From NCBI GenBank assembly GCA_016839365.1, contig JAEOUH010000069.1:33698-97697 (forward strand): a stretch of 64,000 nucleotides of DNA, written 5' to 3'. Both the position numbers and the translations under genes were made by a program. Source of the stretch: Candidatus Hermodarchaeota archaeon (GTDB lineage: Archaea > Asgardarchaeota > Hermodarchaeia > Hermodarchaeales > Hermodarchaeaceae). This document shows positions 1,721-16,935 of this stretch, piece by piece (position 1 is the stretch's first letter; every line of letters starts with the position of its first letter). A model generated the notes under the pieces. The model was not told the origin of the DNA. It saw only the letters and a program-made list of their open reading frames with translations, and made no database searches.

Positions 1721-1744
1721 GACACTACAATATGGTTTGTGGAC

Positions 1745-3208
1745 ATGTCTCCCACACCCTCTCAACCCACCAACTGTGACACCGATTCCACACGATTTGA
1801 CACCCGACAGTATCAAGAACATATCCTCCGACGAATCAAGGAAAACCGGAACCATAACATCTTGGTAGAATTAGACTGTGGGCTAGGCAAACGCGTCCTC
1901 ACCTACAAATTAGTCACCGAGCAGTTTCCACAAACCCGGTTCATCATCACAGTCAACTCGTCATCCTCACTTCAAGAAACCGCCCAATATCTGGAAAAAG
2001 AATACGGCGGTGTTGAAGGCTTAGGTATCCTGGCTCCCAACGTTCAAGGACCTCATCGTGAACAACTCTTGCGAGAATCTCGGGTAGTCTTGTGCACACC
2101 TCGAGTGCTAGCCAACATTCTTAAAAAAGGCAATCTGACGCCAACCAACTTCGACGGCTTGATGATCAACGAAGTAGACACTATCATTAGGCGGGTTGGA
2201 CAGGAGCGGGTGCTTATCCAACCGTGGAGTTATCTCCTCGAATTCTTTAAAGACAATTGGATTATTGGGCTCAGCGGTACCCTTCGCGACGATCATGTAG
2301 TGTTCACTGAAGAGCAGCTCCAGATCCGTAATGAACTCCAAACCCTTGCAGTGTTTCTACCTAACGTCGAACTGATCAGCATGAACGAATTGGCCGACAC
2401 TGATTTGAGCGAGTTCATCAAACCCACAATCTTGGATGCGGTTCCAGTCACCAGTCCAGTGATTCGAGCCACCTCCCTGGTCATCGACGACCTCATCCAA
2501 TCCACCCGGGAAGAAATTCACCAAAGGGTTCGCGAAGAAACCGGTCAGTCGATAGGGGAACTTCCAGAATCCACACGTATTCTACATTTAATCCTCCACG
2601 AACTCCCCATCTCAGAAGAACTCGCTCAAAAATACAGCGGACTCCTAATGACCCGGAAATATTTGTACGGCATGGCATCTAAAAGCTTCCGCCGCTACCT
2701 CCACCACCCCACCCTCAAATCTAACATCGATGTTAACCGCATGATGCAGGATTGGCCTAAAATCACTCCCAAATCACTGAAAGCCCAAGAGCTTGCATTA
2801 AACGCTGACAAAACCGTCATCCTTACCTCATACCTCAACGTCGTCAGTGAAATAGACAGCTTGCTCAAAGTGAGGGGAGTAAATACTTTTCAACTCACCG
2901 GACGCACCCAAGACAAACAAGCAGTGCTATCACAATTCAAACAGGCCAAACCACCTGCCGCAGTCATTTTATCTCCGGTCGGTGAGCGTGACCTTGACTT
3001 ACCCGATGCCGATTTGCTTATAATTTGTGATACCGTCAATACGACGAAAACGGTCTATCAGAAAATGAAGCGTAGCCGTGGTGGACGAGTTGTTTTCTTG
3101 GTGTATGCAGACACCTCAGAAGTGGAGAAACTCCGACGCCTCCTAGATAACATCATGGAGCGGTATCCCTGGTCATCACGACTCGGCGATATGAAAGATT
3201 TGCGCTAA
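1745..3208 (+). CDS. SF2 helicase-like protein (Hef/FANCM-type two-RecA core) with degenerate motifs
   Basis: RQYQ Q-motif, LDCGLGKR (Walker A), CTP, INEVD (motif II), GLSGT (III), VGERDLDLP (V), YQKMKRSRG (VI). ATG at 1745 preferred over GTG at 1739. Confidence 0.7.
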   Translation: MSPTPSQPTNCDTDSTRFDTRQYQEHILRRIKENRNHNILVELDCGLGKRVLTYKLVTEQFPQTRFIITVNSSSSLQETAQYLEKEYGGVEGLGILAPNVQGPHREQLLRESRVVLCTPRVLANILKKGNLTPTNFDGLMINEVDTIIRRVGQERVLIQPWSYLLEFFKDNWIIGLSGTLRDDHVVFTEEQLQIRNELQTLAVFLPNVELISMNELADTDLSEFIKPTILDAVPVTSPVIRATSLVIDDLIQSTREEIHQRVREETGQSIGELPESTRILHLILHELPISEELAQKYSGLLMTRKYLYGMASKSFRRYLHHPTLKSNIDVNRMMQDWPKITPKSLKAQELALNADKTVILTSYLNVVSEIDSLLKVRGVNTFQLTGRTQDKQAVLSQFKQAKPPAAVILSPVGERDLDLPDADLLIICDTVNTTKTVYQKMKRSRGGRVVFLVYADTSEVEKLRRLLDNIMERYPWSSRLGDMKDLR

Positions 3209-3233
3209 CAAAATACCCTGATATTGCCCTCCC

Positions 3234-3758
3234 CTACCAGGTCAGCCATCGAAACCAGACCATAAGGCTCACCATGATAATATAAACCAATACTACAAAA
3301 TTCAGGCCCATCAGAAGAAGAAGTGAATTAACGATACTGCGAATATCAACGAGAAGAGAGGATAAAGTAGAGAAATACCCAAGAATGAAAGTTGTCCATT
3401 GGATCCAAATTGCTGCCACCATGATAGACGCAATCGCACTTGCGAAGAACCATCGAGTATTTTGTGGGACATTCGTAGGATGCGAACAAACGCTGACCAA
3501 TACGCTACAAAGCCACGGTCCGAAGACAATAACACCAAAGGAAAGAGGAAAGTGAACCAGACTCAACTGGTTAAAAAACAGAAGCCCTCCCCCAGGTGTA
3601 GGATAATATCCTATCCGAGTAATTAAGTCAAGTGAAATAATCATCTGGGCGAATACAATGATGAACTGTGTAGCTACAGCAACTGAGAGACCAACGAACA
3701 CCAATCGCCAAGCTAGATTACTGCCCAGGTATTCATCGTAATCGTATACAACACCCAA
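3234..3758 (-). CDS. Hypothetical 4-TM membrane protein
   Basis: Four hydrophobic segments; GSxxAWR and GPW...HP motifs shared with the neighbouring gene. Confidence 0.65.
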   Translation of the reverse strand: MGVVYDYDEYLGSNLAWRLVFVGLSVAVATQFIIVFAQMIISLDLITRIGYYPTPGGGLLFFNQLSLVHFPLSFGVIVFGPWLCSVLVSVCSHPTNVPQNTRWFFASAIASIMVAAIWIQWTTFILGYFSTLSSLLVDIRSIVNSLLLLMGLNFVVLVYIIMVSLMVWFRWLTW

Positions 3759-3784
3759 ACATGTTCCCTCGCTCCAATCCTGTT

Positions 3785-4300
3785 CTAAGGGTTATTTAAA
3801 ACCTCAGATACAGGCTTTAGCCACTTCCACCAAAAAACCACACTTATCCCAACAATGGTGAACCCCACGATCCCATAGAGGATAGATGTGGTGACCAACT
3901 CAAACAACACAAATGGATCCGGTGGGTAAGGCCAGGTAACATGGTTGTATAACAGGATTAACTCTCCCCAACACATACCGATAAACGTCATAATCAAAAA
4001 TCCCTGGCCTAGCCATTGCCAATACTGGGATCCGTATTTTGGATGTGTGCTGCCAAAAATCACAATCATACCAAACCATGGGCCAATAAGCGTGGTGATT
4101 ATCAGAGTAAATATCAAACTGAAGAATTGCATAGTCCCACCAAACGACCAATTCGATAGGAGAAAAGCTTGGCGTGTCAATTCAAATAACACGATTTGAC
4201 TCACGATCAGGCATAGGCTAGCACTTGTTAGAATAATGAATCCCCACCGCCATGCCCGTTTTGAACCAGGATAAACTTCAACAGACTTTTTCAATTCCAT
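3785..4300 (-). CDS. Hypothetical 4-TM membrane protein, paralog of 3234-3758
   Basis: YPGSKRAWRW and IGPWFG...THP; ATG (MELKK) at 4300 preferred over the ORF-track start at 4354. Confidence 0.65.
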   Translation of the reverse strand: MELKKSVEVYPGSKRAWRWGFIILTSASLCLIVSQIVLFELTRQAFLLSNWSFGGTMQFFSLIFTLIITTLIGPWFGMIVIFGSTHPKYGSQYWQWLGQGFLIMTFIGMCWGELILLYNHVTWPYPPDPFVLFELVTTSILYGIVGFTIVGISVVFWWKWLKPVSEVLNNP

Positions 4301-4415
4301 ACATTTTCCTCTCCATAAAATAGTAACCAAGGCACCCAGAGGGCTTGTATCCAATTAATTCTTAGTATTACAAGGATTTAACAATTCAGAACAATGTTTC
4401 AACTTGTGAAACTGA

Positions 4416-5039
4416 ATGACCACCCACAATCAGCATTCCAAAGAAGAATCAACAGCTCCTACGGTCTTTCCTGTCTACGTCTTTGAGAGAACTAGCAAAT
4501 CAATCTTCAACTATTGTCTCAACAAAGCCACAGGGTCATCTCCGCGTGAAGCCCTGGGCGTCGTTCTGGGCTTTCGTCGACAATGGCAGGGAGAGAAGTA
4601 TATCCGTATCACCGATTGGGCCACCGGACACGTAGAAGCCAGTATTGCCCATGCCCGGTTCACTCCAGAAGGTATCCTCGAATATCGGCTTACCCTGCAC
4701 GATCGGTATGGCAATAATCCCCATTCTCCTCGCGTCGTCGGCCTCTGGCACTCCCATCCCTTTGGTGGCGATCCGCAGTTCTCCTCAACGGATTTACGTA
4801 CATTCTTCAACACGCCTTTCTGTGCTGAGGGCAACGTCTTCTTTTTGATTGATCCCCTCAGCCGGATCTTCAAAGTGTATATGCTTCGACCACGGCCCGA
4901 ACAGCCCGGCTTACAGCTAGAAAGGGTAGAATGGTGTACCTATCGTCCATCAGTCCCCGCTGGGGAACCAATGCTTCAGGATAACTCGCTAATCCATGAG
5001 GAGGAAATGCGTGATGACGAAGAAGCCCACACCGATTGA
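4416..5039 (+). CDS. JAB/MPN+ (JAMM) metalloprotease, putative Ubl-processing/deconjugating enzyme
   Basis: N-terminal catalytic Glu (PREALG) and a complete JAMM motif VGLWHSHP-x7-S-x2-D (HSHPFGGDPQFSSTD). Confidence 0.9.
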   Translation: MTTHNQHSKEESTAPTVFPVYVFERTSKSIFNYCLNKATGSSPREALGVVLGFRRQWQGEKYIRITDWATGHVEASIAHARFTPEGILEYRLTLHDRYGNNPHSPRVVGLWHSHPFGGDPQFSSTDLRTFFNTPFCAEGNVFFLIDPLSRIFKVYMLRPRPEQPGLQLERVEWCTYRPSVPAGEPMLQDNSLIHEEEMRDDEEAHTD

Positions 5040-5877
5040 TTTAGAGTATTTTGAGAAGGATCAGCATGATCGAACACGACGCTGGTTGGGGGCTACCAAT
5101 CTTGAGGCCGTTCGTCAGTCAACGGTACTGATGGTGGGCGCAGGGGCAGTCGGGAATGAGGTCTGTAAGAATCTCGGCTTGTTAGGGGTTGGGAAAATCG
5201 TTTTGGTGGATCCCGATAAAGTGGCCGCCTCCAATTTGAACCGCTGTGTTTTCTTTCGTCCAGGAGACCACGATATTAAGTTCAAAGTCGATGCAGTGGC
5301 TGAGCGGCTCCCTGAACTCGCAACCGATACAGTGGTTGAACCACATGCCATACCGATACAGGTTGCACCGGACGAAGTGTGGGATGTTGACTTAGTGTTG
5401 GTCGGTGTTGACAACCATTATGCCCGCTACCTGCTGAATGCTAAAAATCTCAGCATCGAGCCACCCTTGCCAGTGATAAATGGGGCTATGGGAAAGGACT
5501 TCGTGTCAGTTGAAGTCCTCGCGCCACCAAAGACAGCGTGCTTGGTGTGTTCGTGGAGTAAAGACTTCGTCGATCATGTCATCACCAACGAAGTACGCAC
5601 ACGATGTGATCCTTTCTTTGTTGACACTATGCCCCGATTTCCCATGATTAGTTTTGTTACCTCCGTTGTGGGCGCAGTGATGGCGTGGGAAGCCACAAAG
5701 ATGCTTGCTGGATTACAGCAGTGGCGTCTAACGGGGCAATGGCAGGAGGGGCTCAAACCAGCACTTGGCCGGTTCATCCAATACGACTTACACAAGCATA
5801 AATCCATGACAGGACCAATTATGGCAAATCCACGGTGTACAGAAATTTTCTGTCGCGATAAGCGGAAACATCTCTAA
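5014..5877 (+). CDS. ThiF/UBA-family E1-like Ubl-activating enzyme
   Basis: GAGAVGNE nucleotide loop, DPDKVAASNLNR, VDN, Zn ligands CLVC and C-x4-C, candidate catalytic Cys in RTRC. SD GAGGAGG precedes ATG 5014; overlaps the JAB gene. Confidence 0.9.
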   Translation: MTKKPTPIDLEYFEKDQHDRTRRWLGATNLEAVRQSTVLMVGAGAVGNEVCKNLGLLGVGKIVLVDPDKVAASNLNRCVFFRPGDHDIKFKVDAVAERLPELATDTVVEPHAIPIQVAPDEVWDVDLVLVGVDNHYARYLLNAKNLSIEPPLPVINGAMGKDFVSVEVLAPPKTACLVCSWSKDFVDHVITNEVRTRCDPFFVDTMPRFPMISFVTSVVGAVMAWEATKMLAGLQQWRLTGQWQEGLKPALGRFIQYDLHKHKSMTGPIMANPRCTEIFCRDKRKHL

Positions 5878-5881
5878 CCCG

Positions 5882-7483
5882 TTAGATTAAACCAATGGTC
5901 TTCTGCCAGACCGTTGAAGTCGGTTTCTGATCAGCCCACAAGCGTAGGTTCAGAGTTACTTTGGGGGCTCCATTTGGCATAGGGAGGTTCATCCAAATAT
6001 TCACAGGGGAATCTAATCGAGGTGCGAAGGGTTCAATAGCCACTACCTGGTCCATAAGGCCGTCTGAAACGGTTGCTGTCATCACCATTTGGTCTAACGG
6101 ATGGGCACTGCTTGGTTTTGGAATCAATGAGACCTTCAAGGGCAACGTACTCCCACGTGGGACAGCATCAGGGGCGTTAACCTCTAATTCTGCGGGGGCT
6201 TCTCTCAACCGGGCGGGAACCGATTCGGGGACACCCACCACTCGTTTTACTTTCCACCCGGTCTCAATCTTGGGCTCAGAACGCTCTCCCTTTTTTCCAT
6301 CAATGGCAACAGTATCAGAGTACCAACTGACTTTGAATTCTTGGCGGACGCGAGTATCCATCCAGTTTCCGATGATAAGGGGAATATGACGGTTTGTCAC
6401 TCCTAACAATCCCATGGCCCCATGCCAGGTCGGATCAACAGGGATCCATTGACCCCGAATCCAAATTTCACTCCAAGCATGACGCTCCCAGGACTGCCCA
6501 TTATAAGCATAACCCGCTTCCAATCGGGCTGGTATTTTGTTCGCGCGACACAACGCCGCAAATAAAGCGGCATATTCAGTGCAATCACCAACCTGCTTTT
6601 CGATAGCATAAGCTGCTCCTCTTTCATACTCTTGACGAACATACCGCATCTTCTTTGTAACTGCCCTCATCGCTGCTTGTGCAAATTGTATCGGTGTTGA
6701 ATGATCTTTAGCAATATCTCGGGCAAGATCTTTGATGAGGTGGTGGTGTGATTCTATGAAATTTTCTGGTTGGGTGAACTTAACGATATTGGATGGAAAG
6801 GCTGAGTTGCGAGTTTCTGGCGGAATATTATACCGTAGTGCGCGATTCCGAATGAGAGCTGTGTACCCACAGGTAAAGGCTTCTCCAACAGCAAGACTAG
6901 CTTGATGAAATCGTATCCATTGATTTCCGATTGTATCATTCTGTTGTTGTCCATCCTTCGGAGAGAACTGGATATCAAGTACCGTTTGCCGAGGAGGCAG
7001 CGAAGGCGGAGCAGCTATTATAACTCGAACATTGCTGATTCGAGCACGTGTAATGTTCTTCACAGTCGCTGAATAATTGACCCTGTGCACTACAATTGGT
7101 GGATGTCCTCCTTCAAAGCGAAAGCATCCCATGACATAATGATCGTCGGGAGGTCCTCGATAGGGATACTTATCGATTGCGGCTTTGATGCGGGTTTCCT
7201 GCAATGCAACAACGATTGTATAGAATCCAGACAGCAGATTTGCCGTCAGTGGCACACTAAATTCACCTGTATTAGTCTTACCAAAATGAAACGGGACCTT
7301 ACTCACCATTCGCCCGAAGGGATCAATGATGTAGACGATCCCATTGTCAACCTTTACATTCGATTTTGCTTGACCCTTTCGTTTCAACTGAATAGAAATC
7401 CGTTGACCGGCTTTAACACTCGGAACACCATCTTGCCTCGTAGGGGCGATAATTTTCAAAGACACGGGAAGATTACTCGTCAT
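5882..7483 (-). CDS. Transglutaminase-like (Cys-His-Asp) domain protein with flanking beta-rich domains
   Basis: GDCTEYAALFAALCRANKIPAR...HAWSEIW...W.PVDPTW gives an intact triad; no obvious signal peptide; overlaps the upstream Zn-finger gene. Confidence 0.85.
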   Translation of the reverse strand: MTSNLPVSLKIIAPTRQDGVPSVKAGQRISIQLKRKGQAKSNVKVDNGIVYIIDPFGRMVSKVPFHFGKTNTGEFSVPLTANLLSGFYTIVVALQETRIKAAIDKYPYRGPPDDHYVMGCFRFEGGHPPIVVHRVNYSATVKNITRARISNVRVIIAAPPSLPPRQTVLDIQFSPKDGQQQNDTIGNQWIRFHQASLAVGEAFTCGYTALIRNRALRYNIPPETRNSAFPSNIVKFTQPENFIESHHHLIKDLARDIAKDHSTPIQFAQAAMRAVTKKMRYVRQEYERGAAYAIEKQVGDCTEYAALFAALCRANKIPARLEAGYAYNGQSWERHAWSEIWIRGQWIPVDPTWHGAMGLLGVTNRHIPLIIGNWMDTRVRQEFKVSWYSDTVAIDGKKGERSEPKIETGWKVKRVVGVPESVPARLREAPAELEVNAPDAVPRGSTLPLKVSLIPKPSSAHPLDQMVMTATVSDGLMDQVVAIEPFAPRLDSPVNIWMNLPMPNGAPKVTLNLRLWADQKPTSTVWQKTIGLI

Positions 7484-7868
7484 TATCTCGACCTACTTGG
7501 TCGGCTTCAGAGCGGGATTCGATTCCTTCTTCTTCTGGAAGAATAACTACTTTTCCACCCAGTGGTTGAGGTGAGCGTCGGGGGACATCGCCCAATATTC
7601 TCACAGATGTTCGTATCTCCGTAGGTTGGCTTCCTAAATCCAATCGGGGACCCAAAAACCGAGTAAAGTGTGGAGAGTGGGCTTCACCGCCACGAACGAT
7701 TGCTCCGGGACAGGTGCCTTGCCCTGATTCTAAGAAGAGGGCACGACACGAAGGACAAATATAGCTACCACAGACTGTACAAATCCACCATTGGCTCCGT
7801 GCATTTTCAAGTGAAACTTGAGTGGCACAAGCCGCACACCGCATTTGGGATGCACCATGTATACTCAT
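7473..7868 (-). CDS. RING/PHD-like Zn-finger protein (candidate E3) with disordered acidic tail
   Basis: C-x2-C-x15-C-x2-C-x4-C-x2-C-x11-CP-x9-H; ATGA overlap with the upstream gene. Confidence 0.7.
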   Translation of the reverse strand: MSIHGASQMRCAACATQVSLENARSQWWICTVCGSYICPSCRALFLESGQGTCPGAIVRGGEAHSPHFTRFLGPRLDLGSQPTEIRTSVRILGDVPRRSPQPLGGKVVILPEEEGIESRSEADQVGRDNDE

Positions 7869-8083
7869 GATGGTCTCTCCTTAAGCTCACGTCGTTTCTT
7901 TTTACCATGAATTCTAATGGAATAATAAGGCGAAAAGTTGGGAGGTCGTTCTTCTTCAAAAGGGATGTCTCTCTCTCGGAGAATCTGAATCCGGGTTTCC
8001 CTCTCAGATTCATTCGTTGATTTTTCAGGTTCTTCCTCATACTCGTCGGGGCTTTCTTTCTCCTCTGAAGGTGGATCCGACAT
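7865..8083 (-). CDS. Small disordered protein (acidic N-terminus, basic C-terminus) in the Ubl operon
   Basis: SD GAGGTG upstream of ATG 8083; fills the gap between the E2 and Zn-finger genes with translational coupling. Confidence 0.65.
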   Translation of the reverse strand: MSDPPSEEKESPDEYEEEPEKSTNESERETRIQILRERDIPFEEERPPNFSPYYSIRIHGKKKRRELKERPS

Positions 8084-8097
8084 AATTGACACCTCGT

Positions 8098-8850
8098 TTA
8101 TCTCTCATCATCAAGAATCCGAACCGATGTACGTCTACTTGGTTTATCCAAAACGCGGGGCGCCCTTCGAACAGATTCCGCGCTTGATGATGAGGACTCA
8201 AGTATGCGTACACGTCCCTGCCGTGAAGCCGCAGCTGGCCCATCCTTGTGCTGGGCTTCCCAGAGCTGATCAAGGGTTTCAACGATTCTGTCTGCATCTT
8301 GCTCATACCATGCCATAGCCGCCATATTTAGACCATGATCGGATTGAAACTGAGATGGTGGTTCTACTCGGTCTGGTTTTAACAATACAAAAAAGGGGAG
8401 ATCTTCAAGGATACGATCTAATTCTCCACGAACCGAGTAGCAGGCATGTCCAGTCCCGCTCGCCGCCAGTCTGGGGTGATACAGGGGCGTTTCTGCTACA
8501 GGTCGAATGGCGCCTATGTTCTGAGGGTACTCTCGGGGCAAATCAAAGATGAATCGATGCTCATAACGTATGGCGCTTGTATCCTCAAGGTTTCTGGGTT
8601 TACGAACGAAGCCGGGGAGATTACGCATAGTAAAGCGAATCCGTTTAAAAGCTCCATCGCGATATCGGGCGATGGTGGAAACGGTGAAATCGCGATTGCT
8701 CCAAGCTGTGTCTTCGCGGTGCGGAGGATCTGGATCCCACCCTCGTCGTCCAAAGAGATTGTTCATAGTGTCAAAAAATGTCTGAATCTGGGTTTCCACT
8801 CTGGCGTTAAACAGCTCAGTAGAGAATACTGGTCGGGTCACGATTATCAC
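8098..8850 (-). CDS. UBC-fold E2-like Ubl-conjugating enzyme
   Basis: FIFDLPREYP...TPLYHPRL-x5-GHAC matches the E2 pattern FPxxYP...TxIxHPN-x-GxIC, with the Cys conserved; LNMAAMAWYEQD matches the E2 LNxxAAxxY helix. Confidence 0.8.
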   Translation of the reverse strand: MIIVTRPVFSTELFNARVETQIQTFFDTMNNLFGRRGWDPDPPHREDTAWSNRDFTVSTIARYRDGAFKRIRFTMRNLPGFVRKPRNLEDTSAIRYEHRFIFDLPREYPQNIGAIRPVAETPLYHPRLAASGTGHACYSVRGELDRILEDLPFFVLLKPDRVEPPSQFQSDHGLNMAAMAWYEQDADRIVETLDQLWEAQHKDGPAAASRQGRVRILESSSSSAESVRRAPRVLDKPSRRTSVRILDDER

Positions 8851-8894
8851 CCTCAGTTCCTGTATTCGTCTCGGGTGTGTGAAGATTTTTTTTG

Positions 8895-9215
8895 TTATTG
8901 TCCGACTTCAGGGACTACATCGAGGAGGAAGAATTCATCATCGGTGATTTTTGGTTCTAGCTCCCCGAAGGTTATACCTGGACTTAGCCGGGTGGGTTCA
9001 GGGGCTTTACGGATGAGCACAAATTCTGCACGCTGGTCCCCGATTTTCGCTTTAGCCCAATCGTCAATACTGACGCCCTCATCACGGGCCTGGGTGACAA
9101 GAGTGCGGATGACTTCATCGACACGGGTATCTTCATCAATGCCGATTCGGAATTCCTTTTGACGGGGCTCAACATCGACGATGATTGAGCGCCAAAATCC
9201 TTCATCTTTACTCAA
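8895..9215 (-). CDS. Ubiquitin-like (beta-grasp) protein ending ...VPEVG-Q
   Basis: 106 aa; strand-strand-helix (DTRVDEVIRTLV), then strands, TFGEL (like the Ub TLxD motif), a final strand FLLDV and a near-terminal Gly. SD AGGTGA before TTG; first gene of the E2 operon. Confidence 0.75.
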   Translation of the reverse strand: MSKDEGFWRSIIVDVEPRQKEFRIGIDEDTRVDEVIRTLVTQARDEGVSIDDWAKAKIGDQRAEFVLIRKAPEPTRLSPGITFGELEPKITDDEFFLLDVVPEVGQ

Positions 9216-9457
9216 GACTGTTCACCTACAAAGGGAGGGTCACAGCACGCACTTTAACTTTACTCGAATCTTAGACGCAAGCTCGCCCTTCTTTAATCGT
9301 GAAAGAGAATAGGTCGGCTCAAAATCACAGACTGATGGCGCTTTGTCTTTGGTTGGTGTGAAAGTTTAAGAGTGATGGACTATTGTGACTTAATGTACTT
9401 GGGCAATACTGAACATGCTAGCTGCTCAGGATAATCCGCGGGAGTGCACTCGAGATA
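9216..9457. promoter_or_regulatory. Divergent intergenic region with candidate BRE/TATA elements for the Ubl and SMC operons
   Basis: Minus-strand AAAGTTAAAG (plus-strand ctttaacttt, ~9252-9261) and plus-strand AAAGTTTAAG (9361-9370). Confidence 0.4.
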
Positions 9458-12352
9458 ATGACCACTAGGCACAAGCCATCCTTATCAACTTCACCAATCG
9501 TGTTTCGTAGTATCCGTCTAGTGAACTTTGTCATTCACCGTGATACCACAATCCAACTCGATCAATCCCCTGTCATTCTTATTACAGGCTCCAATGGAAG
9601 CGGAAAAACCTTGATTCTCGACGCCCTGTTGCTCGCAATTGGCGTTGAATCTCGAAGAGCCCAACGTCAACGCAATTCGGCTTTCATCGGTCGATTCGAG
9701 AAATATGCTGAAGTCATTCTAGAACTTAACAACTACCAACTCAATGGGCGACGAGTCTTAAGAAGCCCCGATCCTACCATGTCTGCGCTTCTTGATAAGG
9801 ACGTTGTGTCGATCCGGCTACGAGTCGATGAAACAAACCGAATATCCTATTGGTTGAATGAAAAACGATCAGTGAATGGCCATCAGATTGCTCGTAAAGA
9901 TATTCGGAAACTCTTCCAAGCTGCTGGACTCTTTGGAGATTCTCCCTTAGCTGTTACTGAGGCTGAGACTTTAGACCACTTTGCCTCCCAATCTCCACGA
10001 CGAAAGTTCGAGACTCTCCTGAACGAAACTGGGCTCCGTAATTGGATGGAAAAACTCGAGGAAGCCCGTCTCCTCGTATTACAGGCAAGAGCCAATGTCA
10101 AGCCCCTCGAATACCGGATCCGCCATGAAGAACAGCGCCTCCAGGTTCTGAAGGCAGCCTATGAAGCTTTTCAACAAAAACAGCAGCTCCAACAGAGACA
10201 GAAGGATCTCGACGTTGAAGCGGCCTGGGCTGAAGTGGCTTATCGTGAGGAGCTTGCTAGCCAACTCCAATCACAAGTTACCAGTCTGGAAACCCAACTC
10301 TCCGACCAAAATGAGAAATTGGACAAGTTAGACCAAAGGAAAACCAGCTTGAAAGAGAAGTGCGAAGCGATTGAAGCAAAACGGGAAAAGCTCCTAACAA
10401 CCATGGACTCGCTACACGATGAGCGGTTGCAAGCACAAGGCCATCGGCGAGGGCTAGAGAATGAACTCAAAGGCATGCTAAATCGAACAGAACGATATAC
10501 CAAGCGTCGGAAGCCCGCAACAGGCAAAATTGACGCCATTCAGAAGGAGTTAGCAACGATTATCCAGGATCGAGATGGCATCGATGATCAACTCGCTCAG
10601 GTCCGACAAGATATTGCCTCAACGGAAGAGTACCTCTTTACCAAACCCCAACGGTATCCACATTTTGAAGAGACAATACTTCGGGGCTGCCTCCGATACC
10701 GGTCTGAACTTGATAAACTCGCACTCTCTGATGCAGTGATTGGGCCCCTTTTTGCGCTCATTCGTATGAAACCGGAGTATGCACAGTACGAAACCGCGGT
10801 CAAACTGGCCTTGGGACGCTACTCCTATGCATTCATTGCTCTGAATCGAGAGGTCTTCGTTGAGGCTAAAAACTTGTATGATCATCTCTGGCCACATGAA
10901 AAGCCAGATCTGGTGGTCGCCCGGACAAATCCCACGACCGCGATAACGCGAGATCGCCCAACGGTTTCTTTACCCGTGATTGGTTGGGCAGCTGATCTCA
11001 TTGAAGGGGATATATATGCCATTAGTTTCCTAAGCCGTGTCATAAACACAGCTATCGCGGAGGAAGGAGCCGATCCCAACACGCTAGTCGATGCCTCTCA
11101 ACAACTCAATTGCAACATCATTACTAGTGAAGGAACAAGTCATTATCTCCGAATCGGCGCCTTTGCCCGACCACCCCGACCCGTTACGGTAAGTTTGGAT
11201 GTCTCTCTCAACGATTTGGGACTAGCCCAGGATGGCGCTGATACACGCATTCAACTCCGTGAACTTCGTGAACAAGAAGCTAAACTGATGCGAGACCGAA
11301 TGCGCATCAATTCTGAAATAAGTCAACTTCGGGCAACCCTCCAAGACCTTCAGCAAGTGCACATATCTCATCTTTCTGATGGGGAAAGAACAGCCCTGGT
11401 CACTAGTTCTGAACATCGAGTCGCTGAATTACAACAACTGATTCTTGAACTGGAAACTGAATGCGACAGGCTTAGCCAAGATTATCAGGAATATAACTTA
11501 GAATTATCACCGATCCATTCCCGACAGCAAAAACTATCCGAACAACTCCAAAACCTTGACCTTCGACGATCACGCCGTCAGGTTGAAATCAACCACCTCG
11601 TTGCAGAGCTCAAGCAACGCGAAGATGAATATGAGCATCTCATTAAACAAACCAAACATTTCCGTAAGGCTGCCACAGCACTGGGAGAACGCCCTCAGGC
11701 TGTTCGAAACCCTACTGCGATTCGTGATGAACAAATCCAAATCCAGGCGATGATTGATACTATCACCGCCACAGCAGACGATCGGCAAGCCTTTGAAGAC
11801 CAGGAACAAGTCGTCTCCCAACTCCAAGACTACCTCAAACAACGTCAGCTCCACTTAGAAAATCTGATGACGGACGTTGATCGAAGACTTCTCGAGTGGA
11901 GACGGCAACTCCAAGAGACGGTTGAAATCCTCAACCACCGTATGAACCAATTACTCAGCCACTTCCTCAAGCAAGTCAAACTGCTTATTCGATTCCCCGA
12001 TGAACCCAGTCGTGCGGAGCTCCACCTTCAACTTGCCATTAACCGCAAAGGCGACTGGCGGACCTATCAAGAAATGTCTGGGGGCGAACGGGTCCTAGCC
12101 ACCCAGACTTTCATTTTAGCCCTACACACTCTCGCCAAGAGTCCCCTCCATGTGATTGATGAATTTACCCAACGCCTCGATGAAGCAAGCCGTGCAGCTA
12201 TTCTCAGTGTTGTTCAACGCGCCCTCGATTTAACCCAAAAAGACTCACTAATTCATCCACAGTTTCTTCTAATGGCTCCCTCCACGGTCGGACTCGAGAT
12301 CCCAGAGACTATGCACCACGTCGTGCTGATCAAAGGACAGGTGAAAGTCTAA
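9458..12352 (+). CDS. SMC-family ATPase of the SMC5/6-related type
   Basis: IRLVNF..H, Walker A GSNGSGKT, two long coiled coils around a hinge (VIGPL...AVKLALG..AFI), signature MSGGER, Walker B/D-loop VIDEFTQRLD, and His-less switch QFLLMAP as in SMC5/6 QF/YxxxTP. Confidence 0.9.
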   Translation: MTTRHKPSLSTSPIVFRSIRLVNFVIHRDTTIQLDQSPVILITGSNGSGKTLILDALLLAIGVESRRAQRQRNSAFIGRFEKYAEVILELNNYQLNGRRVLRSPDPTMSALLDKDVVSIRLRVDETNRISYWLNEKRSVNGHQIARKDIRKLFQAAGLFGDSPLAVTEAETLDHFASQSPRRKFETLLNETGLRNWMEKLEEARLLVLQARANVKPLEYRIRHEEQRLQVLKAAYEAFQQKQQLQQRQKDLDVEAAWAEVAYREELASQLQSQVTSLETQLSDQNEKLDKLDQRKTSLKEKCEAIEAKREKLLTTMDSLHDERLQAQGHRRGLENELKGMLNRTERYTKRRKPATGKIDAIQKELATIIQDRDGIDDQLAQVRQDIASTEEYLFTKPQRYPHFEETILRGCLRYRSELDKLALSDAVIGPLFALIRMKPEYAQYETAVKLALGRYSYAFIALNREVFVEAKNLYDHLWPHEKPDLVVARTNPTTAITRDRPTVSLPVIGWAADLIEGDIYAISFLSRVINTAIAEEGADPNTLVDASQQLNCNIITSEGTSHYLRIGAFARPPRPVTVSLDVSLNDLGLAQDGADTRIQLRELREQEAKLMRDRMRINSEISQLRATLQDLQQVHISHLSDGERTALVTSSEHRVAELQQLILELETECDRLSQDYQEYNLELSPIHSRQQKLSEQLQNLDLRRSRRQVEINHLVAELKQREDEYEHLIKQTKHFRKAATALGERPQAVRNPTAIRDEQIQIQAMIDTITATADDRQAFEDQEQVVSQLQDYLKQRQLHLENLMTDVDRRLLEWRRQLQETVEILNHRMNQLLSHFLKQVKLLIRFPDEPSRAELHLQLAINRKGDWRTYQEMSGGERVLATQTFILALHTLAKSPLHVIDEFTQRLDEASRAAILSVVQRALDLTQKDSLIHPQFLLMAPSTVGLEIPETMHHVVLIKGQVKV

Positions 12353-14240: not shown

Positions 14241-14672
14241 TTGTCCAAGGGACATAAACTATTTACCTATCAACCACTCATGCCTTCCTATACGAATTGG
14301 CTTGCATCATTTTTGGAGTTGATGGGTTTGGGTGACGAAAAGGCTCCCAGTTGGGTAAAACACGCCGTTCGGCGTTGGAAGCAATTCTATAATGAAATTC
14401 AGTTCATCGATGGACAAATTGATACTGCAAATCCGTTGAGTGTAATTTTCCGAAATGAAGCTCTCTTAAATCAAGTAGTATCCCAATCACAGGCTGTCAC
14501 CTCACCCATTGAACCAACCCTTTCAAAGAAAGAAGAATCAGCTCCATCTCAACCTGAAAAGACTCCTTCGCCAAATCCCGAAAAAAAGCAGCGCAAAGGA
14601 TGGTTCATTTCTAAACTCAAAGACCTCCAATACCTATTCAATCGCCCTCTTTGGTCCTGGGATTCTTTCTAG
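14241..14672 (+). CDS. Hypothetical protein, last gene of the SMC operon
   Basis: 2-nt gap after the Zn-finger gene; Pro/Ser/Glu linker and Trp-rich C-terminal tail. Confidence 0.55.
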   Translation: MSKGHKLFTYQPLMPSYTNWLASFLELMGLGDEKAPSWVKHAVRRWKQFYNEIQFIDGQIDTANPLSVIFRNEALLNQVVSQSQAVTSPIEPTLSKKEESAPSQPEKTPSPNPEKKQRKGWFISKLKDLQYLFNRPLWSWDSF

Positions 14673-15649
14673 ATGGGATCATCCAAACCCATTTTGGAAC
14701 GAATCTTCTCGATGACATCTTCTCCCATCCGCTTCGTTTCTGCTGACTCCGTCGTAGGCTCATCCTGCACATCCTCAGACAGTTGAGGGAGACCCGCTAG
14801 TTTTCTCACGATACCAGAAATTGCATGCTTTGCCACAGAAACCTCAGAACCGCCAGAGAGTAGCACCACCAACCGTCCCTCACAGACTTCTTCCGCTGCC
14901 TGCATCAAAATATCTGTCATTGCAGGAAAGGCACGCAACGAAAGATTAAACCCACCATAGTCTAGGGCATGGGCATCATGACCCATGTTCCACAAGATCA
15001 TCTCAGGGCGAATCCGCCTGGCCCAAGGCAGCGCTAAACGACGTACGGCTTCGACAAAGGAGTCATCACTACTCGAACTTGGGAAAGGGACATCCACATG
15101 CCGATGTGTCACCGTATCCAGGCTTTCCCGGAAACTCGCCTCGAAGTTTAAATGGTATACTCCTTCATCATCCCCAAGGACATCACGAGTTCCATCCCCT
15201 GGATGAGGATCCGTATCAACAATGAAAAAACGATTAACTCCATGCATATGTTGCAAATTTCGAACAAGTAAAGCAGAGTTGTTGTAATAGCAAAAACCCC
15301 AGGATGAACCACGACTAGCGTGGTGCCCAGCACAGCCAGTAAAGGCAAAAGCATTGGCTGCCTCGCCAATCCAAACCGCCTCACCTGCTCTTACCGCGGA
15401 TCCCCCCGACACGAGTGAAGCAGAATCATATCCTGATCTTCTAACATGTTGAATGTGATCAGGGGTGTGCACCTGCAGGAGTAAATCCTCACCTACTCTG
15501 GGCGCTTCTTCCAAAATAACCTGAGTAGTCTCCAATGTTCCCGAATCGCGTAAATAGTCAAGTGCCGGTTGTACACGACCAGCTAGCACCGGGTACCCTT
15601 CAACTGCCATTAAAGGATGGTAGAGTACGAGTGTTGGCTTCTTTTTCAT
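14669..15649 (-). CDS. Histone deacetylase/AcuC-family protein
   Basis: GHHA, GFCYYNN, DTDPHPGDGT and GHDAHALD; LSGGS where the family usually has LEGGY. Confidence 0.9.
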   Translation of the reverse strand: MKKKPTLVLYHPLMAVEGYPVLAGRVQPALDYLRDSGTLETTQVILEEAPRVGEDLLLQVHTPDHIQHVRRSGYDSASLVSGGSAVRAGEAVWIGEAANAFAFTGCAGHHASRGSSWGFCYYNNSALLVRNLQHMHGVNRFFIVDTDPHPGDGTRDVLGDDEGVYHLNFEASFRESLDTVTHRHVDVPFPSSSSDDSFVEAVRRLALPWARRIRPEMILWNMGHDAHALDYGGFNLSLRAFPAMTDILMQAAEEVCEGRLVVLLSGGSEVSVAKHAISGIVRKLAGLPQLSEDVQDEPTTESAETKRMGEDVIEKIRSKMGLDDPI

Positions 15650-15723: not shown

Positions 15724-16935
15724 ATGGATATTCTGATGATAGAAATTCGGAAAATTACTAAAAATGAACGCCCCGCCATCATGGATCTTTACCGATATGC
15801 GTACACAAAATGGACAGATCGGGAGGTTAAGAACGAAGAAATTGATGACATTATTGAGGATGAAACTCTGGGCCTGTTTGAACAAGGGCGCCTGGTCTCT
15901 TCTTTAAGGGTCCACGAATTCCAGCAATCAATCCGTGGTGTACTCAAGGATTGTGGAGGGGTAGCCGGGGTTGCCACATACCCGGAGGCACGACGGAAGG
16001 GATATGTACGAAAATTAATGCAGGAAGGTTTCAAGATGATGCGTGAGAAGGGGCAATCGGTCAGTATGCTCGATCCCTTTAAGCAAAGTTACTATGAAAA
16101 ATTCGGGTACGTTGCTGCAAATACTGCCTATATTGTTGAAGCCCCACTCAAACAGCTACGCATATCAGACACGACGCCTCAGAATGTGGATTGGACCTTT
16201 GAAAGGGTTCGCGCAGTAAATGCCAAAGACGAATATCTAAAGTTTGTCCGCGAAGTAGGTCCTAAACAGTATCATGGTTACATCATTTTCAAAACCTTTC
16301 CTGATGCTATGTGGAGACAGCGTACAAAAGAAAGTCTCATTGTCTTTGTCAAACATAAAGGAAAAATTCAGGCTTTAGGCCGGTATCGGATTAAAGGGGA
16401 ACGAATCAAGGCTGAATTCCGCACAAATATGCAAGTGATCGATCTCTTATGGCGAACCCGAGAAGCTCGTGACAAACTCTTTTTCTTCTTCAGACAACAC
16501 TGGGACCAAATCCATAATATCAGCATACATGCTCCCTTCGATACTAAGGTCGAACATTGGTTCAAAGATGCACGTTTGAAGATTGAACGTAAAACTCCTT
16601 GGATGGTTCGCATCATCGACGCAAAGAACGCAATCCAGAATCTTCCAGGCCTTGGAGAAGACATCGTCACCCTTGAAATCACAGATCCTAATTGTCCCTG
16701 GAATAATGGAACTTACTCCCTTCAATCAGAAAAAGGGCGTTTACACCTAACTAAAAGCTCAGGGCATCCTGAAGTAAAAGCTACTATTCAAGCGCTCTCA
16801 GCCTTAGTCTATGGAACACAACTAGTAGAGGAATTAGAGTTTCAAGAGGAACTATCAGTCACAGAAGAATGGGCTAGACATACTCTTCAACGGTGGTTCC
16901 CGCCTCTCCACCTATATAATGTCGTGTACTTCTAA
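15724..16935 (+). CDS. Eis-like GNAT acetyltransferase
   Basis: GVAGVATYPEARRKGYVRKLM acetyl-CoA motif, YEKFGY, MVRIID, DPNCPWNNG and a C-terminal SCP2-like domain. Confidence 0.9.
   Translation: MDILMIEIRKITKNERPAIMDLYRYAYTKWTDREVKNEEIDDIIEDETLGLFEQGRLVSSLRVHEFQQSIRGVLKDCGGVAGVATYPEARRKGYVRKLMQEGFKMMREKGQSVSMLDPFKQSYYEKFGYVAANTAYIVEAPLKQLRISDTTPQNVDWTFERVRAVNAKDEYLKFVREVGPKQYHGYIIFKTFPDAMWRQRTKESLIVFVKHKGKIQALGRYRIKGERIKAEFRTNMQVIDLLWRTREARDKLFFFFRQHWDQIHNISIHAPFDTKVEHWFKDARLKIERKTPWMVRIIDAKNAIQNLPGLGEDIVTLEITDPNCPWNNGTYSLQSEKGRLHLTKSSGHPEVKATIQALSALVYGTQLVEELEFQEELSVTEEWARHTLQRWFPPLHLYNVVYF

Follow-up and report, generated by a model that had tools for sequence, protein, structure and literature searches.

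Do the seven tightly packed genes at positions 4416 to 9215 of a 64,000-nucleotide stretch of Candidatus Hermodarchaeota DNA (hereafter the window, meaning that whole stretch) form a protein-modification system that stands alone, or do they serve the genes beside them? The seven encode a ubiquitin-like protein (Ubl), activating (E1) and conjugating (E2) enzymes, a JAMM/JAB metallopeptidase (JAB), a zinc-finger protein, a transglutaminase-core protein and a small acidic protein. A preliminary description of this DNA had named six of these components, all of which are confirmed where it had placed them by Pfam matches, AlphaFold2 (AF2) folds and conserved motifs; it overlooked the conserved gene for the acidic protein, of 75 amino acids (aa), and its view of the set as self-contained does not hold. 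The cluster stands head-to-head with an operon encoding a protein of the SMC (structural maintenance of chromosomes) type, kleisin- and kite-position proteins and a RING-like protein, and it stays linked to that operon through three gene orders in several Asgard families. On balance, we lean toward the view that the cluster specifies an active E1-E2-E3 pathway of Ubl conjugation and deconjugation (E3 denoting ligases) that is dedicated to an SMC5/6-like chromosome complex.

The source genome is a 2.2-Mb Asgard metagenome-assembled genome (MAG) that is 84% complete, in which the window lies on contig C45, and the window's relatives carry the names Hermodarchaeota or Promethearchaeota in public records. 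The JAB and E1 open reading frames (ORFs) overlap on the plus strand, and the five remaining genes converge on them from the minus strand; among the latter, the genes for E2, the 75-aa protein, the zinc finger and the transglutaminase are translationally coupled, with a gap of 5 nt followed by overlaps of 4 and 11 nt. Synteny kept across 30-plus genomes rules out chance ORFs. The window has an even GC content and no tRNAs, and the locus occupies a stable place in the chromosome, between housekeeping genes and without mobile-element genes.

To follow the linkage, we surveyed 400 Asgard genomes grouped in families (f numbers). Orthologues of E2 occur in 32 of the 400 genomes and those of E1 in 31, nearly the same ones: the former are present in 18/18 genomes of f1, 1/1 of f2, 2/2 of f11 and 10/12 of f12, and the latter in 17/18, 1/1, 1/2 and 10/12 genomes of the same families and in 1/1 of f29. 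The other ~28 Asgard families hold no orthologue of either enzyme, and the kite is present in every family that does. Five families of Asgard archaea, made up of Hermod-, Heimdall- and Asgardarchaeum-type MAGs, keep the link to the SMC operon; the proteins are only 29-50% identical between them, and the link takes several forms. In every Hermod-type locus whose DNA extends far enough, the SMC operon is head-to-head with the series Ubl, E2, small protein, zinc finger and transglutaminase, with E1 and JAB convergent. Heimdall-type genomes instead have a single co-directional series (SMC, kleisin, kite, RING, JAB, E1, Ubl, E2 and small protein) with gaps of 13-129 nt. Asgardarchaeum abyssi carries SMC through E1 in that order on one contig and Ubl, E2 and transglutaminase on a second contig, and in the fifth family, f29, the kite and E1 genes are 1.3 kb apart. 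Across three families, JAB and E1 lie within tens of bases 3′ of the RING gene of the SMC operon.

The SMC protein of the window matches Pfam SMC_N (3.2e-22) and has no Pfam SMC_hinge match; against the PDB it scores 55 bits with Smc, 43 with SMC3 and 37.5 with SMC6, and also matches SMC5, scores that do not discriminate its type. A separate, canonical hinge-bearing SMC is encoded on contig C15 of the same genome. No family match was obtained for the kleisin-position protein, and the profile of the kite-position protein found nothing in the PDB; the order SMC, kleisin-position protein and winged-helix protein is nonetheless conserved across loci. Second, SMC5/6-related SMC-kleisin-kite operons have been surveyed in TACK and Asgard archaea (PMC8665677; bioRxiv 10.1101/2024.01.07.573240). 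At three Asgard loci free of the cascade (L118:8861-13527, L119:5196-9991 and L120:450-5039), the gene after SMC, kleisin and kite encodes a protein homologous to the 153-aa RING-like one.

Table 1. Features of the Ubl cluster and of the adjoining SMC operon, with positions in the window
Feature	Position	Strand	Basis
JAMM/JAB metallopeptidase, 207 aa	4416..5039	+	Pfam Prok-JAB, invariant motif residues
Compact ThiF-type E1, 293-aa ORF (probable start at 5014, giving 287 aa)	4996..5877	+	Pfam ThiF
Cytosolic transglutaminase-core protein, 533 aa	5882..7483	-	Pfam Transglut_core, Cys301-His335-Asp350 triad
RING-like 8-ligand zinc finger, 131 aa, candidate E3	7473..7868	-	Conserved ligands, sub-threshold RING matches
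Small acidic protein, 75 aa	7865..8092	-	Conserved 3′ of E2
Divergent UBC-fold E2, 250-aa ORF (likely start at 8841, giving 247 aa)	8098..8850	-	AF2 fold, HPR...Cys137
Beta-grasp Ubl, 106 aa, ending ...PEVG-Q	8895..9215	-	AF2 fold, Val104-Gly105
Divergent intergenic region, 242 bp, presumed shared promoter of the Ubl and SMC operons	9216..9457		ORF map
Second SMC paralogue, 964 aa	9458..12352	+	Pfam SMC_N
Kleisin-position protein, 263 aa	12352..13143	+	Position 3′ of SMC in all loci
Kite-position winged-helix protein, 215 aa	13140..13787	+	Weak MarR_2 match
RING-like zinc-finger protein of the SMC operon, 153 aa	13777..14238	+	Paralogue of the 131-aa zinc finger

The enzymes of the cluster retain the residues that their chemistry needs, as the preliminary description had held from the window alone: those of JAB, E1 and E2 are invariant in orthologue alignments, and for JAB, E1 and the transglutaminase the comparison extends to orthologues of only 30-50% identity. 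The JAB (Prok-JAB, E = 1.3e-8, 35.1 bits against a cutoff of 25) keeps E45, H112, H114, S123 and D126 of the E...HxH...S..D motif in orthologues down to 39% identity, and is predicted to trim the tail of the Ubl and to deconjugate it. The E1 matches Pfam ThiF (E = 1.5e-34) over residues 31-270 and has no further domain; specifically, neither a ubiquitin-fold nor a rhodanese domain was found in it with Pfam. Its orthologues all keep GAGAVGNE, SN(L/I)NRC, a DN motif, the zinc tetrad CxxC...Cx4C and, in the crossover region, a single Cys. NCBIfam places it nearest to ThiF, and it falls below every equivalog cutoff (ThiF, 85.2 against 275 bits; MoeB, 70.2 against 266; the SAMP E1 UbaA, 61.7 against 450). 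By sequence, its closest PDB chains are UBA6 (70.7 bits) and UBA1, which outscore ThiF, UBA5 (42 bits), MoeB and UBA2 (36.6 bits), and the matched regions of UBA6 and UBA1 are their active adenylation domains; at 287-293 aa, the E1 does not have the canonical eukaryote-type architecture of the UBA1/UBA2/UBA3 class, with its C-terminal ubiquitin-fold domain. In PADLOC, the E1 weakly matches CBASS E1-E2 models (up to 2.5e-15, over ~115 residues) and BilD (3e-7), and the JAB matches generic JAB models (2.4e-5 at best).

The E2 is recognizable by fold and by profile comparison. Searches of Pfam (E ≤ 0.1), PADLOC and NCBIfam returned no match to it, and no member of its family reaches the gathering score of Pfam UQ_con, the best being a Planctomycetota orthologue (E = 0.0012, 18.9 bits against a cutoff of 27). 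The AF2 model has a mean pLDDT of 75.7, with a core above 90, and all 46 of its Foldseek matches at E ≤ 1e-3 are UBC-fold chains, nearly all of them E2 enzymes, with Ubc9 the best (6.8e-5) and the MvcA-UBE2N-ubiquitin entry 6jky among them. The top VIA match has a Z of 8.0 and a root mean square deviation of 4.6 Å over 136 aligned residues (range, Z of 7.3-8.0 and 131-146 residues, using model residues 6-205). We rejected a specific affinity to SUMO and Ubc9, as Ube2K, Ube2G2, Ubc13 and UbcH5 lie within 1 VIA Z unit of Ubc9, and Ube2K and others tie with or lead it. H125-P126-R127 and C137 are invariant in 26 sequences of the family, and the hhalign comparison of this 26-member profile with 24 canonical Asgard E2s (81% probability, E = 1.2e-5) pairs HPR125-127 with HPN and Cys137 with the catalytic Cys. 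The E2/Ubl sequence family is tiny: a search of 1.84 billion representatives yielded 58 clusters at E ≤ 1e-3, without a canonical E2 in their number; its distant E2 members P0104, P0108 and P0119 lie on contigs of 1-3.4 kb with uninformative neighbors. Profiles of the E2, the Ubl and the kite yielded only noise against PDB sequences.

That the 106-aa protein is a beta-grasp Ubl, as the preliminary description had supposed, is borne out by the agreement of its AF2 model, Foldseek and VIA on the fold. The best model has a pLDDT of 85.8 (the four others are near 50) and gives 65 Foldseek matches at E ≤ 1e-3; in VIA, at Z values of 9.5-10.8, it resembles ubiquitin, SUMO1, ISG15, Caldiarchaeum ubiquitin and a bacterial Bil Ubl, the last in the Ubl-deubiquitinase complex 8tyx (Z of 10.2). 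Its sequence matches neither Pfam ubiquitin nor the PDB, and hhalign gave no significant alignment with the genome's own canonical ubiquitin. Val104-Gly105 is invariant, with a single Gly and not Gly-Gly, and is followed either by a stop codon (in Heimdall-type genomes, Asgardarchaeum and some Hermod-type genomes) or by an unrelated tail of 1 to ~20 residues, such as Q, VLP, FSS, RK or KVEA. Every Asgard Ubl is encoded by a gene of its own, which stops at the Gly or soon after it. An invariant Val-Gly followed by an absent or variable tail is what marks a modifier whose maturation involves the loss of a tail.

As to the candidate ligases, the part of the preliminary description that called the 131-aa protein a RING-like zinc finger stands insofar as its eight ligands are conserved, in the pattern C-x2-C-x15-C-x2-C-x4-C-x2-C-x11-C-x10-H (a RING/PHD/Nse1-like spacing). 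Its RING matches are all sub-threshold, namely, zf-UDP as the best in Pfam (E = 0.0077, 16.7 bits against a cutoff of 27.1) and, in the PDB, the CesA RING (0.072), RNF4 (0.24) and NOT4 (1.8), and hhalign found no significant similarity of either zinc finger to the genome's canonical RING protein, so that a RING-like identity is plausible and not proven. The 131-aa zinc finger and the 153-aa RING-like protein of the SMC operon are paralogues. A predicted complex of the E2 core (residues 1-205) with the zinc-finger domain (residues 1-78) scored 0.06 against a mark of 0.32, a result with no bearing either way on E2-RING binding.

Short hydrophobic motifs connect three of these proteins. The pattern [VI]-x-[IVF]-[LIMV], usually with G, R, K, S or T before it and acidic residues after it, recurs in the E2 tail (after residue 205), in the zinc-finger tail (after residue 75) and in the core of the 75-aa protein. 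This core reads [RKT]-I-x-I-L-x-E-R-D ... PPN-x-x-P, and its gene is kept 3′ of E2 in Hermod-type, Heimdall-type and one Planctomycetota locus. The disordered tail of the E2 contains three [VI]-x-I-[LI] motifs at most, two or three being usual, and that of the 131-aa zinc finger contains two motifs resembling SUMO-interacting motifs (SIMs). Tails average 1.9 motifs, against 0.15-0.19 when shuffled (an enrichment of 10-13 times), and the motifs persist in Heimdall-type and Planctomycetota proteins at ~35% identity, where the remainder of the tail is unalignable. By their likeness to SIMs, the conserved motifs of the tails probably bind the Ubl.

The transglutaminase is a clear member of its family (Transglut_core, E = 4e-24, 85.4 bits against a cutoff of 23), with Cys301 and His335 invariant and Asp350 replaced by Glu in one orthologue. 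Its beta-rich N- and C-terminal extensions are missing from some orthologues (290 aa). Two forms, one of 533-570 aa with beta-rich ends and the other a core-only protein of 290 aa (L001:11361-12233, L017:2854-3729), occur in genomes that a search assigns to the window's own genus. In Heimdall-type genomes, the gene lies away from the Ubl cluster, in a zinc finger-transglutaminase pair ~7 kb off behind housekeeping genes. A transglutaminase homologue is encoded 7-8 kb from the SMC operon in both f7 loci.

The family reaches beyond archaea, and so beyond the account given in the preliminary description: when prokaryotes were scanned with one genome for each species, six Planctomycetota MAGs proved to carry the Ubl-E2 pair, at ~40% identity. 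The three of these genomes that were searched each contain single orthologues of E1 (1e-102 to 1e-106), JAB (1e-63 to 1e-65) and the kite (1e-44 to 1e-48), together with 153-aa RING orthologues (1e-15, ~30% identity over the full length) and transglutaminase-like candidates. The co-occurrence of these orthologues indicates that the ensemble, including the SMC accessory proteins, moved or persisted together across domains, and it argues for one functional unit over a chance neighborhood. Other genes near the Planctomycetota loci include those for RimK-type ATP-grasp ligases (one with a GCS2 neighbor) a few kilobases from Ubl-E2 at two loci unrelated to each other (L080:10619-13354, L085:10684-11895), which may be a coincidence, and that for a 989-aa HEAT-repeat protein 3′ of the Ubl, E2 and small-protein genes (L085:6150-9119), with a faint match to the Stromalin conservative domain (E = 0.0079). 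HEAT-repeat proteins of such kind accompany kleisins in eukaryotic SMC complexes.

In the pathway that we favor, whose every chemical step and whose substrate we infer from sequence and fold, starting from the folds, catalytic residues and gene linkage demonstrated above, the Ubl would be cut after Gly105, most likely by the JAB, with Gly-ended orthologues bypassing trimming. The compact, probably homodimeric E1 would then adenylate Gly105 and load the Ubl on its crossover-loop Cys198 (numbered from the Met at 5014), from which the Ubl would be handed to Cys137 of the E2. The 131-aa zinc finger and its 153-aa paralogue would act as E3s, the presumptive targets being lysines of the SMC complex or of proteins met on DNA, while the [VI]-x-I-[LI] motifs, flanked by acidic residues or Ser, of the E2, the zinc finger and the 75-aa protein would hold the Ubl noncovalently in the fashion of SIMs. 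The JAB would take the modifier off again, and the transglutaminase-fold Cys-His-Asp enzyme could serve as a second isopeptidase or as a transamidase.

Several observations weigh against this pathway or its dedication to the SMC complex. The E1 has no ubiquitin-fold domain, which leaves no evident way to recruit the E2; the E2 itself has an Arg where canonical E2s have the Asn of HPN; both zinc fingers fall below the threshold of every RING model; the fold of the Ubl rests on one confident AF2 model of five; and the assignment of the SMC to the SMC5/6 type rests on the literature and on the presence of a second, canonical SMC and not on a tree. Families f7 and f8 carry SMC, kleisin, kite and RING without the Ubl system, such that the SMC complex can do without the cascade; these operons indicate that the cascade is an accessory of one operon branch and that the RING belongs to the SMC operon itself, and, judged from gene order, a separate RING gene seems intrinsic to the SMC5/6-like operons of Asgard archaea. 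Moreover, the Planctomycetota orthologues are dispersed around the genome, and at all six Planctomycetota loci the Ubl frame runs on past Val-Gly into the N-terminal helix of the E2, a read-through by which the Ubl could be a domain of the E2 and not a free modifier. A run of ten A's lies exactly at the -1 shift into the E2 core ORF at each of these loci (L080:9582-10531, with the A-run at ~9995-10010, and L081-L085), and its conservation, despite a protein identity of 37-43% to the window's E2, suggests that a Ubl-E2 fusion is produced, by programmed frameshifting or by slippage during transcription.

Four other explanations account for parts of this evidence. The cluster could encode a general-purpose Ubl modifier whose adjacency to the SMC operon is inherited synteny; the flanks of Hermod-type loci (HAD hydrolases, a helicase and malic enzyme) are syntenic as well, meaning that conservation partly reflects shared ancestry, and the genes are dispersed in Planctomycetota. 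We regard this explanation as unlikely, given that the SMC link outlasts three rearrangements between families whose proteins are 29-50% identical, that JAB and E1 follow the SMC-operon RING gene by tens of bases in three families, that the zinc finger of the Ubl operon is paralogous to that RING, and that no family with E1 or E2 orthologues is without the kite. Distinctly unlikely, in our estimation, is a defense against plasmids or viruses in which an SMC-type DNA sensor, as in Wadjet and Lamassu, is joined to a Ubl arm, as in Bil and CBASS Cap2/Cap3. The SMC does match PADLOC LmuB (1.8e-21), mad3 and JetC, the E1 matches CBASS E1-E2 and BilD, and a distribution that is patchy at the family level and crosses domains to Planctomycetota suggests horizontal transfer; yet these PADLOC matches extend no further than the ATPase head or the adenylation domain, both of them generic, none was obtained for the E2, Ubl, zinc finger or transglutaminase, and the cluster includes no nuclease or other effector gene. 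Two families carry the cluster in 18/18 and 10/12 of their genomes, at a fixed chromosomal position flanked by housekeeping genes, where GC content is even and mobile-element genes are absent, and this also speaks against defense. Eukaryotic SMC5/6 likewise restricts episomal DNA (as mentioned in bioRxiv 10.1101/2024.01.07.573240), and by this analogy a defensive role is compatible with dedication to the SMC complex.

The Planctomycetota read-through would also fit a Ubl that regulates the E2-like protein as one of its domains or subunits, with a transglutaminase that is itself the true ligase or protease, cross-linking independently of ATP. Bacterial operons with Ubls fused to E2-like domains offer precedent (PMC1779556), and the transglutaminase has an intact triad and a gene translationally coupled to that of the zinc finger. 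This arrangement strikes us as very unlikely, however: the Asgard Ubl has its own gene in every case, with an end at the Gly or shortly beyond it; the adenylation and Cys residues of the E1 and Cys137 of the E2 are invariant, though an adaptor would not need them; and the transglutaminase is not beside the cluster in Heimdall-type genomes. The terminal Gly-Gln of the window's Ubl was considered as a Gln donor for the transglutaminase and rejected, since the residue after Gly is variable or absent and an unconserved Gln cannot be the donor site. Least credible of all is a sulfur-carrier system of the SAMP/MoaD/ThiS kind in which the E1 would thiocarboxylate the Ubl: although the E1 belongs to the ThiF/MoeB superfamily and is most similar to ThiF in NCBIfam, it is far under all equivalog cutoffs and has no rhodanese domain, the Ubl ends in a single Gly and not Gly-Gly, and the Ubl is inherited together with a JAB, RING-like proteins and an E2 whose Cys is invariant. 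The preliminary description had reported no genes for cofactor synthesis or tRNA thiolation nearby, and this proves correct, in that the closest ThiS/MoaD-type (ThiS-family) gene is ~36.6 kb upstream; five ThiS-family and two other ThiF genes are found elsewhere. ESCRT genes are absent from the surroundings as it had said, the Snf7 (ESCRT-III) genes being on contig C7. Its proposal of a distinct protein-modifier family, neither a sulfur carrier nor an ESCRT-linked ubiquitin system, is supported in silico by the small size of the E2/Ubl family, the scores of the E1 below all NCBIfam equivalog cutoffs, the single C-terminal Gly of the processed type in the Ubl and a canonical ubiquitin operon at another place in the genome.

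How does the SMC-linked system relate to characterized ones? The same genome has a canonical ubiquitin operon on contig C71 (L004:419-2764), comprising a zf-RING_2 RING protein, ubiquitin (PF00240), a UQ_con E2 and an E1 whose C terminus carries a ubiquitin-fold domain, and its presence elsewhere in the genome makes the SMC-linked Ubl system a separate one. A second UQ_con protein is encoded ~2 kb from the C71 operon. On the basis of this operon and of Pfam, PADLOC, NCBIfam and PDB scores, we rejected membership of the window's system in Bil, CBASS, SAMP/UbaA, the UFM1 pathway and the canonical ubiquitin operon. Similarities to each are nonetheless apparent. UFM1 ends, when mature, in Val and a single Gly after removal of a short tail, and it is served by a compact homodimeric E1 without a ubiquitin-fold domain and by an E2 without the HPN Asn; the window's single-Gly Ubl and compact E1 resemble this pathway, but there is no Pfam Ufm1 or UFC1 match, UBA5 scores 42 against 70.7 bits for UBA6 in comparisons with the E1, the expected trimming enzyme is a JAMM protein and the E3 candidates are RING-like. 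The SAMP/UbaA system has an archaeal beta-grasp modifier, a ThiF-type E1 and removal by a JAMM protease in common with the window's system but is E2-independent and Gly-Gly-ended and doubles as a sulfur carrier. Among the structural matches of the E2 and the Ubl, Ubc9 tops the Foldseek matches of the former and SUMO1 is among the top matches of the latter, and the short motifs of the [VI]-x-[VI]-[VIL] type, which adjoin acidic residues or Ser, recall SUMO-SIM recognition; these likenesses do not imply orthology to SUMO, Ubc9, UBA2/SAE1 or Nse2, and the E1 scores higher against UBA6 and UBA1 than against UBA2. The Legionella proteins MavC and MvcA are transglutaminase-type Cys-His-Asp enzymes that act on a Ubl and an E2, in ubiquitin ligation and its reversal; the transglutaminase of the window is, in contrast, a classical Transglut_core protein, and the likeness is at the level of precedent only.

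The ubiquitin operon of Caldiarchaeum and Asgard archaea encodes ubiquitin, E1, E2, a small RING E3 and an Rpn11-like JAMM protein (PMC3082918, PMC5654768), and the window similarly has a modifier, a ThiF-fold E1, a UBC-fold E2, a zinc-finger E3 candidate and a JAMM protein in one cluster. It differs in that its Ubl, E2 and zinc finger match none of the Pfam models of the canonical operon, its E1 lacks the ubiquitin-fold domain, its Ubl has a single Gly and its E2 has HPR in place of HPN and a motif-bearing tail, and in the addition of the transglutaminase, the 75-aa protein and the tie to SMC. Bacterial Bil, type II CBASS Cap2/Cap3 and Bub/6e systems (PMC1779556, PMC10557695, PMC11601596) also combine a ThiF-type E1, a UBC-fold E2, a beta-grasp Ubl and a JAB, and Ubl-E2 fusions, like the one suggested for the Planctomycetota relatives, occur in such bacterial operons. 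Unlike in Bil and CBASS, however, the E2 and Ubl of the window have no PADLOC match, E1, E2 and JAB are separate proteins, no CD-NTase or effector is present, and the locus is a fixed chromosomal site linked to SMC and not a defense island.

The closest parallel to the ensemble as a whole is the eukaryotic SMC5/6 complex, in which an SMC-kleisin-kite core is likewise combined with zinc-finger proteins (the Nse1 RING and the Nse2/Mms21 SP-RING SUMO ligase) and a Ubl pathway, with the difference that the window's RING is a separate, unfused gene 3′ of the kite. No other SMC complex, to our knowledge, has ubiquitin and SUMO ligases among its own subunits as eukaryotic SMC5/6 does. We offer, more tentatively than the pathway itself and as something short of an even prospect, the proposal that an SMC5/6-like complex with its own RING and a private Ubl, E1, E2, JAB and SIM-like readers exists in some Asgard archaea and, by transfer, in some Planctomycetota, as a prokaryotic parallel to, and possible precursor of, the link that Nse1 and Nse2 make in eukaryotes between SMC5/6 and ligation of ubiquitin and SUMO, with a ligase arm that would predate eukaryotes. 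If this is true, that arm is older than eukaryotes and not the set of eukaryotic additions for which the ligase subunits are taken in bioRxiv 10.1101/2024.01.07.573240, where the Nse1 RING is treated as a eukaryotic gain. In literature whose coverage was incomplete, we found no paper on this family or tying an archaeal SMC5/6-like operon to a Ubl cascade or RING, a negative that is no proof of novelty. The locus provides a fully prokaryotic set of ~11 small genes in which SMC, kleisin, kite and RING are co-inherited with a dedicated Ubl cascade, and this set, being recombinantly expressible, makes SMC-Ubl coupling directly testable. It also contributes a new E2/Ubl family that stands apart in sequence, with a modifier ending in a single Gly and an E1 of compact build, offers candidates for SIM-like reader motifs in prokaryotes, and raises the possibility of a transglutaminase-fold enzyme in a Ubl pathway.

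Genes on either side of the two operons show conservation of their own. Just upstream of the JAB, positions 1739-4354 encode a ResIII/Helicase_C helicase (489 aa, with a weak match to the XPB/Rad25 C terminus) and two minus-strand genes of 174 and 189 aa; the helicase and the 189-aa gene hold their position in Hermod-type genomes but not in Heimdall-type genomes. Two tandem HAD-family hydrolase paralogues occupy positions 303-1720, and the pair is kept in Hermod-type genomes. Beside the SMC operon are a histone-deacetylase-family gene (14669-15649, minus strand), whose position is kept in three related loci (a Hodarchaeota-labeled MAG, Hermodarchaeum yapensis and a Guaymas Basin sediment contig), and a gene for a GNAT acetyltransferase with an SCP2 domain (15724-16935, plus strand). 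Finally, L042:10942-12660 encodes an aromatic amino-acid lyase with a rubredoxin domain inserted at residues 277-324, adjoining a lyase paralogue without the insert.

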